Shown here: in pieces, positions 18,172 to 61,870 of the stretch
How positions within the stretch are numbered: the first letter of the stretch is position 1
Layout: every line of letters starts with the position of its first letter
DNA from: Escherichia phage RB43
Strand: one strand, 5' to 3'
Sequence record: NC_007023.1
Length of the DNA: 64,000 nucleotides
Program-made: the position numbers and the translations under genes
Notes under the pieces: generated by a model
Told to the model about the DNA's origin: nothing
Seen by the model: only the letters and a program-made list of their open reading frames with translations
Databases searched by the model: none

Positions 18172-18248
18172 GGCCCTTTAGCTCAATTGGTAGAGCGAAC
18201 CCCTCATAAGGGTGTGGTTTCCGGTTCGAGTCACGGAAGGGGCCACCA
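18172..18248 (+). tRNA. tRNA with anticodon CAU (Met or Ile2), atypical T-arm
   Basis: 7-bp acceptor stem GGCCCTT/AAGGGCC, D-arm GCTC-AATTGGTA-GAGC, anticodon loop CTCATAA, T-loop TTCGAGT, 3' CCA; T-stem needs removal of A18233 to be canonical. Confidence 0.65.
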
Positions 18249-19125: not shown

Positions 19126-19166
19126 TCAACAGGCTATCTTCGGATAGCCTTTTTTCTGGAGAAACT

Positions 19167-19733
19167 ATGCGCTATTTAAAATACGCAAGCTGGATCTTAC
19201 TGGTTCCGGTAGACATTATCACAGGTGTTCTTGCTATCCTGTTAGCCCCCTTTGTGGTTCCGTTCTATGATGAAAAAGTAGGACATCTGCCTAAAGGGTT
19301 CCGATGGATGGAAACCTATGATAACCCGATTGATGGTGACGGTGGACACATCGAACGCTGGAAAGATATTCGCAAATGGGGCGCTGTCGGTGTCTATGCT
19401 CAACGTGTGGCGTGGCTATGGCGTAACAAGGCGTATAACTTCGCGTATCATGTGTTGGGGCGTGAGTCTATATCACACACCTACTGGAAAGGAAACAAAC
19501 TGGTAGACAGCAGTTCAAGCGATCCTAAACATCATGGCTTCCTGGTGATGTGGAACGAATCTGCGTGGGGTGTATTCGGTTTCGTGCCGTGGCTACGTAT
19601 CCATAACATTCAATTCTGTCTGCGTGTCTATTGCGGGTGGAAACTGAAATCGGAAGTAAACAACCCAGACAACAAAGACCGTGTGATGCTGGCATTCCAC
19701 ATCAACCCGTTCCGGTTCTATAAAATCAAGTAA
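19167..19733 (+). CDS. membrane-anchored hypothetical protein (188 aa)
   Basis: N-terminal TM segment WILLVPVDIITGVLAILLAPFVV then Trp-rich soluble domain. Confidence 0.55.
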   Translation: MRYLKYASWILLVPVDIITGVLAILLAPFVVPFYDEKVGHLPKGFRWMETYDNPIDGDGGHIERWKDIRKWGAVGVYAQRVAWLWRNKAYNFAYHVLGRESISHTYWKGNKLVDSSSSDPKHHGFLVMWNESAWGVFGFVPWLRIHNIQFCLRVYCGWKLKSEVNNPDNKDRVMLAFHINPFRFYKIK

Positions 19734-19742
19734 AGGTAATAT

Positions 19743-20105
19743 ATGAAAGCGTATCAAATTTTAGAAGGTTTACATACTGGTACTATCTATCTGGAAGAAG
19801 GAAACGATGTTCGGATCGTAGTATCAAAAACTCTCGAAGTGGATTCAGTGATCGGAAAATCTCGCGTTGTACCATTCGCAAAACGTGAAGTTGATATTGA
19901 GTTTCAACCGACTGTTAAAGTTGAAGGTGGACAGCACCTAAACGTGAATGTGCTACGTCGCGAAACCCTGGAAGATGCTGTGAAACATCCTGAGAAGTAC
20001 CCACAGTTAACGATCCGCGTTTCAGGTTATGCAGTTCGCTTTAATGCACTGACTCCAGAACAACAGCGCGACGTTATCGCCAGAACCTTTACGGAAAGCA
20101 TGTAA
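19743..20105 (+). CDS. Autonomous glycyl-radical cofactor (GrcA/YfiD-like)
   Basis: C-terminal [58 protein letters not shown] with RVSGY glycyl-radical motif; closely resembles enterobacterial GrcA from memory. Confidence 0.8.
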
Positions 20106-20329
20106 TGTCTATTGAAGATATCAAGGGGTATAAACCCCATACTGATGAAAAAATTACGATCGTGAATCGTATCAAAGCAGCAGAAAATGAACTGGGTGCT
20201 ATCCTGGATGATCTTGATAAACGATATTCAGGTGATTACGCCTGTTCAGATCTGGAATCACACACAGAAAAAGAACTTGATGAAATGCTCGAACGTACAC
20301 ATCAAATTCAATGGCAAAAGACCGACTGA
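20105..20329 (+). CDS. hypothetical acidic protein (74 aa)
   Basis: ORF overlapping GrcA-like stop (ATGTAATG context). Confidence 0.5.
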   Translation: MSIEDIKGYKPHTDEKITIVNRIKAAENELGAILDDLDKRYSGDYACSDLESHTEKELDEMLERTHQIQWQKTD

Positions 20330-20391
20330 AAGAAGCCTCTATGTGGGCGTGTCGTGCGGTGTTCCAGCCAGAAGAAAACTATTAAAATCAA

Positions 20392-20419
20392 GCCGTTGCC
20401 GAAAGGTGACGGCTTTTTT
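20392..20419 (+). terminator. Rho-independent terminator
   Basis: GCCGT...ACGGC hairpin followed by TTTTTT. Confidence 0.6.
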
Positions 20420-20469: not shown

Positions 20470-20487
20470 TAACCACGTAGGCAAGAC

Positions 20488-20545
20488 AACTTAACTTTGA
20501 GGATGACATTATGAACAACTTAACTTTGAGGATGACATTATGAAA
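20488..20545 (+). repeat. 29-bp tandem duplication spanning RBS and start codon
   Basis: AACTTAACTTTGAGGATGACATTATGAAC (20488-20516) repeated at 20517-20545 with one mismatch; first copy creates a 10-codon mini-ORF whose TGA overlaps the second ATG. Confidence 0.85.
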
Positions 20546-20829
20546 ACTTACAACATGAAAGACCTGGTTGCTTCAAAACTCGTCGTGAAGCCCGTGCGTA
20601 TGTTCTGGCGGCTGGTAAAAATACCTCTGCTGTAATCGACCTGGGTACTGATAAAGAGGTTGGTGCTCGTTGGGCCGCTGTTGTGGTTATCGCTGTCCCT
20701 GTTACCCCTGCTAAAACTCTGGTTCTGGGTGCTCGCAATAGCGAAACTTTGAACACCAGCACTTGCAATAACAGAGGAGTTCATAGTGTCAAAGTGTTCA
20801 AACGTCGCAGCATTGGTGCGAGGGCTTAA
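20540..20829 (+). CDS. hypothetical protein, apparently frameshifted (about 96 aa if one A is added to the AAAA run near 20575)
   Basis: ATG 20540 gives 31 codons; protein-like reading continues in the -1 frame to TAA 20827-20829 with no in-frame start of its own. Confidence 0.4.
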
Positions 20830-50771: not shown

Positions 50772-51353
50772 TTAGCAATCTACGCCAACTTTATCAAGCA
50801 CTTTTTCATGATAATGTTTCCGGCATAACGAAACATATTTGTCTTCGGCTCCGATTTCGACTTGCTCCCCTTCGGTTACGAAGTTGCCTTGTGCGTCGAT
50901 ACGCGCGACCGTGGTTGCTTTGCGCCCACAGTGACACATTCCCCGTAGTTCTCGGATCTCGTCAGCCCATGCGAGCAACCAGTAAGAACCCTCGAACAGA
51001 TTCAACTGAAAGTCGGTACGCAGCCCGTAACACATTACAGGAATTTCGAGTTCATCAACAACGCGACACAGATCGAAAACGTTTTTCTTCGAAAGGAACT
51101 GTGCTTCGTCAACAAAAATACAGGAAATATTATTCCGGCGTTGAATGTCCCAGAACAGATCCATGCTGGGTGAAATCAGTTCACATGATGCGCTTAACCC
51201 TACGCGAGAAGACACCGTATGTGAACGAGTATCAAGCATAGGCTTGTAAATCACTACGTTCATACCACGTTCTTTGTAGTTGTATGCGTCGGTCAGCAGT
51301 CGTGCGCTTTTACCAGCATTCATTGATGCGTAATGATAATACAGTTTAGCCAT
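50772..51353 (-). CDS. tk: Thymidine kinase
   Basis: 193 aa; P-loop SMNAGKSARLL, VDEAQFL, zinc ribbon CHCGRKA...SLCRKH; collinear with T4 Tk. Confidence 0.92.
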   Translation of the reverse strand: MAKLYYHYASMNAGKSARLLTDAYNYKERGMNVVIYKPMLDTRSHTVSSRVGLSASCELISPSMDLFWDIQRRNNISCIFVDEAQFLSKKNVFDLCRVVDELEIPVMCYGLRTDFQLNLFEGSYWLLAWADEIRELRGMCHCGRKATTVARIDAQGNFVTEGEQVEIGAEDKYVSLCRKHYHEKVLDKVGVDC

Positions 51354-51529
51354 TTGCAGCGTCCTTGATCTCTTTCTTCACGAACAGAATGATATCTTCG
51401 ATTTTGTTTTCGATGTAGCACATGTTTGACATTACGCGCTTCTGTATCATCATCGGTCGCGTAGTCCATGTATAATTCACCCAGTTCTTTCAGTTTGTGC
51501 GTCAACAGCTTTTCTTCTTGCGGTCTCAT
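51320..51529 (-). CDS. hypothetical protein (69 aa)
   Basis: ORF. Confidence 0.4.
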   Translation of the reverse strand: MRPQEEKLLTHKLKELGELYMDYATDDDTEARNVKHVLHRKQNRRYHSVREERDQGRCKWLNCIIITHQ

Positions 51530-51711
51530 TCGCGAGATTCCCTTCTTTCATCGTCGATTAGCTGGTCGATGAAATCAACGATGTCATCAAACCAATCTAC
51601 GGCTTCTTGAGCAGAAACCGAACCTTTCCCACTACCACTCATAAAGCGTTCGCGAGCGTCAGCAAACTTTTCGAGTTTTGAATACAGCTTTTCTTTATGT
51701 TCCTGGATCAT
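51526..51711 (-). CDS. hypothetical acidic protein (61 aa)
   Basis: ORF. Confidence 0.45.
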   Translation of the reverse strand: MIQEHKEKLYSKLEKFADARERFMSGSGKGSVSAQEAVDWFDDIVDFIDQLIDDERRESRE

Positions 51712-60835: not shown

Positions 60836-61870
60836 TTACGGAACTGTTTTGTTCGCGGGTGTTCCCAGATATCTTTGATAAAAATCATCTGCTTCCAGAA
60901 CGTTCAAACCTTCGCCCCAGCCACCTTCAACCCAACGTTCGGTAAACGAGCAAGGGAAGAATTCGCCTTTTTCGTTGATGTAAGAGCTAAACATCGTCGC
61001 TTCGCAATCTTCCGCATACTGCTTGTATTGTTCGAAGTTCGGGTGTCCCTCCATCGCTTCAACGAAAGCGGGTGCTGAACAACTATCGAATCCAAATCCT
61101 ACACCAGAATCGAGGCAATATTCAACAAGTTTTTTGTATTGTTCGCGGGTGACGGTATCCCAGTTCTTACCGCGTCCCTTTTGTTTCAGACCCAGGAACA
61201 CGATCGCATTGACTTGTTTCAGGCGTGGATCGTTACGCACGGCATCAACAACGGTAAACGCATCATCATAGGTCTTTGAGCTAACCATGAAATGTAGGTT
61301 GATTTGCTGTTGTCCTGCTTCTGCCAGGTTCGCTACGGAATCGAAAGCAACATCGAAGCCAGCATGTTTATACACCGATACCGCAACAGCCCCAGCAACC
61401 GCCGCTAAACGCGCTGCAACGTCTTTTGATACATCAGCAATGGTAAGGTTCGGCACAATGCCTTTAGAACGCGCATAGGCCATCATATCAAACATATCAG
61501 GGTTTGTTTGTCCCTGTGCATCAGCACCGAGTGCGCATTGGGTTAACCAGGGCATTTTATCAATGATGGATTTGAAAGAAGCGAGATCCATATTGTAGCC
61601 GTTCGGGTTATTGGACTTGTAACAGAACCCACACAGCTTACCAGCAGGACCGTTGCATTTGGTAGTGACCTCAATATCGAGAATCTCAGGGAATGGGGCA
61701 TAAGTCGGATCGTTGTCAAAGGTTGTACCCCAACGAGCAAACTGACCAGTTTTAACGTTGAAATCGTAATTGTACCATTTGGATCTAGCGTGGCGCATAT
61801 CTCCAGCCTGGTAGATAAACAACGTAGGCGCTTTCATAACAGTATGTGCATTATTCATAATATTTCTCAA
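60836..61870 (-). CDS. Cys-rich candidate Fe-S / radical-SAM-like enzyme (344 aa)
   Basis: Cx8CxxC cluster in IEVTTKCNGPAGKLCGFCY plus C-terminal Cys cluster (GFDSCSAP...DCEATMF...FFPCSF); assignment tentative. Confidence 0.4.
   Translation of the reverse strand: MRNIMNNAHTVMKAPTLFIYQAGDMRHARSKWYNYDFNVKTGQFARWGTTFDNDPTYAPFPEILDIEVTTKCNGPAGKLCGFCYKSNNPNGYNMDLASFKSIIDKMPWLTQCALGADAQGQTNPDMFDMMAYARSKGIVPNLTIADVSKDVAARLAAVAGAVAVSVYKHAGFDVAFDSVANLAEAGQQQINLHFMVSSKTYDDAFTVVDAVRNDPRLKQVNAIVFLGLKQKGRGKNWDTVTREQYKKLVEYCLDSGVGFGFDSCSAPAFVEAMEGHPNFEQYKQYAEDCEATMFSSYINEKGEFFPCSFTERWVEGGWGEGLNVLEADDFYQRYLGTPANKTVP

Follow-up and report, generated by a model that had tools for sequence, protein, structure and literature searches.

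A vs.6/Y06I-type glycyl-radical cofactor gene in Escherichia phage RB43: a probable ortholog of T4 vs.6 with an apparently old, conserved radical domain

The DNA analysed here, referred to as the window, is a stretch of 64,000 nucleotides from Escherichia phage RB43 (NC_007023.1), in which an open reading frame on the + strand at 19743–20105 encodes a protein of 120 amino acids. The frame runs from an ATG to its own TAA, is bounded on its 5' side by the stop codon of the upstream gene, and is preceded by a Shine-Dalgarno-like AAGG (19733–19736, + strand) located 6 nt before the ATG, at the same place where a ribosome-binding site is annotated in phage Miller. Its DNA is a 100% match to positions 51345–51707 of the Pseudotevenvirus RB43 record HE981739.1, and is found also in HE858210.2. 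The two RB43-GVA records both label the gene as a "protein of unknown function", while records of related phages label its homologs "pyruvate formate-lyase" and many others "autonomous glycyl radical cofactor".

The gene lies second in an apparent three-gene unit on the + strand. The first gene of the unit (19167–19733) encodes a DUF7338 protein of 188 amino acids with an N-terminal hydrophobic segment (Pfam, 4.9e-65; phrog_2143), and a DUF7338 gene is also found upstream of the vs.6-like gene in phages Miller, leN and Miro. The third gene (20105–20329), the start of which overlaps the stop of the vs.6-like gene (TAATG), is a homolog of T4 vs.4/Acb2 (Pfam Acb2_Tad1_hairpin, 6e-8), with 58% identity to T4 vs.4 over 50 amino acids (BLASTP, 9e-14); Acb2, which is Vs.4, is an anti-CBASS cyclic-nucleotide sponge (PMC10419184). 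The unit is flanked by two terminator-like hairpins followed by T-runs on the + strand, one upstream (19131–19150), where a terminator is annotated in Miller and Miro, and one downstream with an 11 bp stem (20390–20415), where a terminator is annotated in Miro. The order of the vs.6-like gene followed by acb2/vs.4 was the same in Miller, leN, Miro and KpV477. In RB43 the unit has the cd/gp31/pseT cluster on one side and the gp30 ligase gene on the other, with the regB/vs/tk cluster some 33 kb away on the opposite strand, and this location, which differs from that in T4, agrees with the published rearrangement of RB43 (PMC1524935).

Several further features were observed around the unit. The acb2 homolog is cut to 74 amino acids by a 1-nt deletion at about position 20312, where RB43 reads ATTCAATGGC and Miller ATTCAATTGGC, and its conserved C-terminal module, KDRLKEASMWACRAVFQPEENY, is readable in another frame as far as a TAA at 20383–20385 (region 20105–20385, + strand). 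The short CDS of 225 nt is annotated in both RB43-GVA records, and behind the truncation could lie decay to a pseudogene, an error in sequencing, or a loss of the anti-CBASS function particular to this strain. Further downstream, positions 20486–20550 hold a tandem duplication of ACAACTTAACTTTGAGGATGACATTATGA (period 29, 2.3 copies, 97% match), of which Miller has one copy, and the next small open reading frame has its ribosome-binding site and ATG inside the duplicated stretch. At 18172–18248 ARAGORN placed a tRNA-Met (CAT) on the + strand, where the Miller annotation has it on the - strand; RB43 is reported to have one tRNA (PMC1524935), to which this gene corresponds.

The protein encoded at 19743–20105 carries a Pfam Gly_radical domain at residues 60–101 (E = 2.8e-18; 66.8 bits against a cutoff of 22.2), and within it the motif RVSGYAV at residues 92–98, which was invariant across an alignment of 57 sequences. 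The predicted radical glycine in this motif, Gly95, is encoded at 20025–20027 (+ strand) and aligns with G102 of GrcA and G734 of pyruvate formate-lyase (PFL). Against E. coli GrcA the protein gave 65% identity over 112 amino acids (BLASTP, E = 3e-51), and PDB entry 6owr (YfiD) matched it at 1.2e-41. The C-terminal glycyl-radical domain (codons 59–120; 19917–20102, + strand) mimics residues ~690–759 of PflB in alignments and in Foldseek comparison. Its 62 amino acids are identical to those of E. coli GrcA at 59 positions (95%), and between residues 61 and 120 only A102 in place of S and M120 in place of L depart from it, leaving 58 of 60 identical. The same half is 70% identical to PflB 690–760 over 71 amino acids, and 43 residues of the RB43 protein superposed on PFL (2pfl) at 0.8 Å rmsd. 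Thus, the open reading frame is a real gene of GrcA type carried by the phage, as the initial annotation had proposed from the sequence; the BLASTP comparison with host GrcA that it suggested gave a similarity far above chance, with the motif in place.

In contrast to the radical domain, the N-terminal half (codons 1–58; 19743–19916, + strand) is of a phage type, strongly diverged from the corresponding region of GrcA. When the N-terminal halves were compared on their own, BLASTP found 31% identity over 42 amino acids (E = 1.7e-5), and profile-profile comparison with hhalign gave a probability of 91% (E = 1e-6). Across the phage and bacterial members of the 57-sequence alignment R24 was invariant and Q5, I6, K29, D34, R48, E49 and P56 were nearly so. 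Judged from these alignments, the N-terminal half is a true but distant homolog of the GrcA N-terminal region. This region matters for the bacterial protein, in that measurable binding of YfiD to cleaved PFL, as well as efficient installation of the radical, depends on its N-terminal half (PMC8683613). AlphaFold2 (AF2) predicted five beta strands for the RB43 N-terminal half with a pLDDT of ~90 over residues 1–50 and a weak likeness to SH3/KOW folds (19743–19900), and the E. coli GrcA control gave the same result. A folded N-domain specific to the phage was accordingly rejected, the AF2 prediction for E. coli GrcA being identical. The confident prediction contrasts with NMR of YfiD, in which residues 1–60 were disordered in solution (PMC8683613), and the N-domain may fold upon binding to PFL.

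The protein has a stand-alone glycyl-radical architecture devoid of the barrel of glycyl-radical enzymes, and its size and Gly loop are those of GrcA/YfiD (TIGR04365, IPR011140). TIGR04365 was also its best-scoring family, with the match beginning at residue 18. The score of 153.4 bits nevertheless stays below the NCBIfam equivalog cutoff of 170 bits, as does that of T4 Vs.6 (151.1), while E. coli GrcA scores 233.9, and the shortfall is due to the diverged N-terminal half. The RB43 protein is best called a phage-type GrcA homolog rather than an equivalog of the bacterial protein. Like enterobacterial GrcA/YfiD (E. coli P68066; PDB 6OWR), it is a stand-alone radical domain of ~14 kDa with a homologous N-terminal half, and the predicted folds are alike, with a five-strand N-domain joined to the radical domain; unlike GrcA, it is 7 residues shorter, only ~30% identical in the N-terminal half, and encoded by a lytic phage outside the host's own regulation. 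The Gly loop is likewise identical to that in the C-terminal domain of PflB (~690–759; PDB 2PFL), but the RB43 protein has neither the 10-stranded barrel nor the catalytic Cys418/Cys419, and cannot work as an enzyme by itself. A pyruvate formate-lyase identity (TIGR01255) was rejected, since the protein reached 91 bits against a cutoff of 994 and matched only profile positions 674–744, and the "pyruvate formate-lyase" annotations in related phages therefore overstate it.

The closest comparison is with the phage proteins. T4 Vs.6 (NP_049730) is of equal length and 75% identical over 120 of 120 amino acids, and the 121-position profile of phrog_1209 matched RB43 residues 1–120 at 2.1e-59, placing the protein in the phage Vs.6/Y06I family. 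A tblastn search found homologs in 1,586 phage records, the carriers including T4-like phages of Escherichia, Klebsiella, Citrobacter, Cronobacter, Proteus and Aeromonas, T5-like phages and a jumbo Yersinia phage. A vs.6 gene with a Gly_radical match was reported earlier in all six T4-like genomes examined, RB43 included (Nolan et al. 2006, PMC1524935). T4 Vs.6 (Y06I) shares with the RB43 protein the phage-type N-terminus MKAYQILEG, the RVSGYAV loop, the PHROG family and an acb2/vs.4 homolog after it; it differs in being encoded in the denV, vs.8, vs.7, vs.6, vs.5, vs.4, regB region, where vs.5 is inserted between vs.6 and vs.4, and in that the 3' 185 nt of its gene are 97% identical to E. coli grcA, against 83% for the RB43 tract. 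The T5-like homologs (T5.056, 122 amino acids) have the same architecture, the MKAYQ start, and the A and M at both positions where RB43 departs from GrcA, but T5.056 is only 55% identical to the RB43 protein, with 12 differences in the 62 C-terminal residues, and its gene is located among tRNA genes. The fitting label for the RB43 gene is thus a vs.6/Y06I-type autonomous glycyl-radical cofactor, a known gene, which the initial annotation had overlooked. We consider it probable, at about 0.8, that it is a vertically inherited ortholog of T4 vs.6 (Y06I), encoding a phage autonomous glycyl-radical cofactor that acts on host PFL. The gene family, its occurrence in RB43 and the activity of the T4 ortholog have all been published already.

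The near-identity to GrcA had been taken by the initial annotation as a sign of recent capture from an Enterobacteriaceae host, of the whole gene or at least of its C-terminal half, a history that the 58 identities in the last 60 residues would seem to favour and that has a counterpart in the T4-type coliphages, where the 97% identity of the 3' 185 nt to E. coli grcA indicates that such events occur in the family. The DNA of RB43 told otherwise. In each of the 5,426 complete E. coli genomes grcA aligned only to nucleotides 178–363 of the gene, with 83% identity (155/186), and in nucleotide searches of host genomes the 5' half matched neither host grcA nor any other host gene. When grcA was taken from 80 bacterial species (Enterobacterales plus Pasteurellaceae), the closest over the 62 C-terminal codons was that of E. 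coli, and none exceeded 81.7%. Nei-Gojobori analysis of these codons between RB43 and E. coli gave a pS of 0.62, a dS of ~1.3 and a dN of 0.04 (dN/dS ~0.03); this dS matches or exceeds the values for E. coli vs Salmonella (0.94) and E. coli vs Yersinia (1.32). Synonymous sites are therefore saturated while the protein of the C-terminal half is nearly unchanged.

The C-terminal half was also compared between RB43 and the related phages leN and Miro. Its pS was 0.62 between RB43 and leN and 0.70 between RB43 and Miro, and that of the flanking DUF7338 gene was 0.65 and 0.70, respectively. The equal divergence of the two implies that the C-terminal half travelled with the phage backbone, by vertical inheritance. 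Base composition did not discriminate, the C-half GC3 of 0.435 being set against a mean of 0.441 for the ORFs of the window and again 0.435 for E. coli grcA, so that this half is not anomalous in composition, and codon preference likewise failed to tell phage sequences from those of the host, E. coli grcA scoring higher on the phage's own codon table. Given the 83% DNA identity, the pS of 0.62, the ceiling of 81.7% among 80 species, the flank-equal divergence and the wide spread among phages, recent capture is very unlikely for RB43. The near-identity to GrcA reflects strong purifying selection instead, and the simplest history would be that a phage lineage acquired a complete grcA long ago, after which the N-terminal half diverged strongly and the C-terminal half stayed under extreme purifying selection.

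Other members of the family suggest a different course for the radical domain. In T4 vs.6 the last 185 nt are identical to E. coli grcA at 180 positions, in a tract that extends from the VEGGQ codons to the stop codon, while the 5' half of the same gene was devoid of DNA similarity to E. coli grcA. The same pattern was seen on a larger scale, in that 510 phage records matched E. coli grcA at 95–99% identity in the 3' half, with 0/510 covering the 5' half. The idea of recent capture thus fails for RB43 and holds for the 3' half in T4-type coliphages. The ETLLDAVEHPE variant, known from GrcA of Klebsiella, Raoultella and Salmonella, is present in Miro and KpV477, two Klebsiella phages of different genera, and in E. 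coli, Citrobacter and Cronobacter phages the segment is of the E. coli GrcA type, so that the radical domain in phages seems to follow the GrcA variant of the host. Together these patterns suggest that in some lineages host grcA has repeatedly converted the radical domain, recently so in the T4-type coliphages; in RB43 no sign of grcA gene conversion was seen. A more tentative extension of this, for which our literature search found no description, is that vs.6 genes are mosaics, with a phage N-terminal docking domain that persists and a radical domain that host grcA overwrites time and again, RB43 holding an un-refreshed, ameliorated copy, with formate for NrdD as the benefit to the phage; we regard this as possible but rather doubtful.

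The C-half DNA of KpV477 is 87% identical to a metagenome-assembled Enterobacterales genome. One grcA of enterobacterial type lies on a 276-kb Klebsiella sp. WOUb02 record labelled as a plasmid, and a second on a contig assigned to Vagococcus sp. WN89Y, from a Gram-positive genus, the latter probably by contamination or mislabelling.

As to function, E. coli YfiD and T4 Y06I were both activated by the PFL activase (PFL-AE) and restored O2-cleaved PFL (Wagner et al. 2001, from the summary in PMC8683613; also listed in PMC13450708). By analogy, the most likely function of the RB43 protein is that of a PflA-activated Gly95 protein which repairs host PFL, and the rescue of oxygen-damaged PFL put forward in the initial annotation agrees with this biochemistry of the T4 ortholog, as far as PMC8683613 relates it. 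In such a mechanism the small DUF7338/vs.6-like/acb2-like unit between the two terminator-like hairpins would yield the protein, and host PflA would recognise RVSGYAV and abstract the hydrogen from Gly95, the phage apparently having no PFL activase of its own. The C-terminal 60 residues would then serve as a copy of the part of PflB that is lost upon oxygen cleavage at Gly734, and by inserting into the damaged PFL the protein would restore the conversion of pyruvate to acetyl-CoA and formate, with the diverged N-terminal half probably docking to cleaved PFL. This docking could differ in RB43, the N-terminal half being only ~30% identical to that of the host. Activation by PFL-AE and rescue of cleaved PFL are literature findings on the T4 ortholog, and would extend to RB43 by orthology; what is observed directly here is the identity of the protein, its orthology and motifs, the lack of a phage PflA, and the phage NrdD and NrdG.

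The absence of a phage activase is borne out by searches at two levels. Within the window no PFL activase was found, E. coli PflA giving nothing below E = 2.7 in tblastn, and across all phage records PflA detected proteins of NrdG type and, beyond these, just three records at ≥99% identity, of which the one listed, 33.7 kb long, is taken to be host DNA. An open reading frame at 60836–61870 (- strand) was considered as an activase and rejected, with no Pfam match and a CX7CX2C motif that is not PflA- or NrdG-like. It encodes 344 amino acids and is a homolog of the 384-amino acid "radical SAM protein" of Miller, aligning to positions 2–341 of the 384 in phrog_7293, with a weak NCBIfam match to a tungsten-cofactor maturase (E = 0.0021). 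Its cysteine motif, CNGPAGKLCGFC (CX7CX2C), is unusual, and the protein appears C-terminally shortened in RB43.

A link between PFL repair and nucleotide metabolism of the phage is plausible. RB43 encodes NrdD (Pfam NRDD, 2.4e-178) and NrdG, both outside the window, and the T4-like and T5-like GrcA carriers also hold NrdD. The E. coli class III ribonucleotide reductase (RNR) takes its hydrogen from formate (Mulliez 1995, as listed in PMC13450708), and repair of PFL could keep formate available for RB43's own NrdD/NrdG. NrdD was found in 2,917 phage records and the GrcA-like gene in 1,586; NrdD being far more widespread, the formate link is a loose co-occurrence.

A more direct connection, in which the protein would be a spare glycyl-radical part for phage NrdD, activated by NrdG, rather than one for host PFL, has in our judgement the slimmest of chances. 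Oxygen cleaves NrdD, too, at the glycyl radical, RB43 has genes for both NrdD and NrdG, and in the jumbo Yersinia phage fHe-Yen9-04 the GrcA-like g132 lies between nrdD (g130) and nrdG (g135). A role in nucleotide metabolism has also been suggested for the gene (Nolan et al. 2006, PMC1524935). The protein itself, however, resembles PFL and GrcA, at 70% and 95% identity in the C-terminal half, and showed no detectable similarity to RB43 NrdD (BLASTP, E = 8.5), the Gly loop of which is RRTCGYLG in place of RVSGYAV; the radical domain of class III RNR NrdD (RxCGYxG) was rejected as an identity on the same two grounds. The specificity of activases follows this loop, PFL-AE accepting an RVSGYAV peptide and not the RNR loop RVCGYLG (PMC13450708).

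It could also be envisaged that the protein is a modulator or decoy, which titrates host PflA or occupies PFL/TdcE and so redirects or shuts down fermentation, or that it acts in counter-defence together with acb2. The phage-specific, fast-evolving N-terminal half (pN ~0.3 between T4 and RB43) and the score under the GrcA equivalog cutoff are compatible with this, as is the adjacency to acb2/vs.4, which is shared by Pseudotevenvirus, Slopekvirus and Jiaodavirus and, but for one inserted gene, by T4. Adjacency in the dense early regions of T4-type phages is nevertheless weak evidence of shared function, and a mere binder would have no need of the radical glycine and the whole PFL-fitting surface, both of which are under strong purifying selection. 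The T4 ortholog, moreover, makes cleaved PFL active again in vitro (Wagner et al. 2001, from the summary in PMC8683613), and we consider the decoy or counter-defence role unlikely. Repair of host PFL by a vs.6/Y06I-type cofactor thus remains the preferred reading.

For RB43, PFL repair would offer a means of replacing a host function during infection. The infected host is probably unable to induce its own grcA, and the phage copy would take its place, sustaining fermentative ATP and acetyl-CoA in microaerobic, oxygen-fluctuating habitats. For the family, the RB43 gene carries a caution: a phage protein near-identical to that of its host need not mean recent transfer, since in RB43 the synonymous sites are saturated. 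If the mosaic reading holds for its relatives, homologous recombination would keep the radical domain of these phages matched to the PFL and PflA of their hosts.
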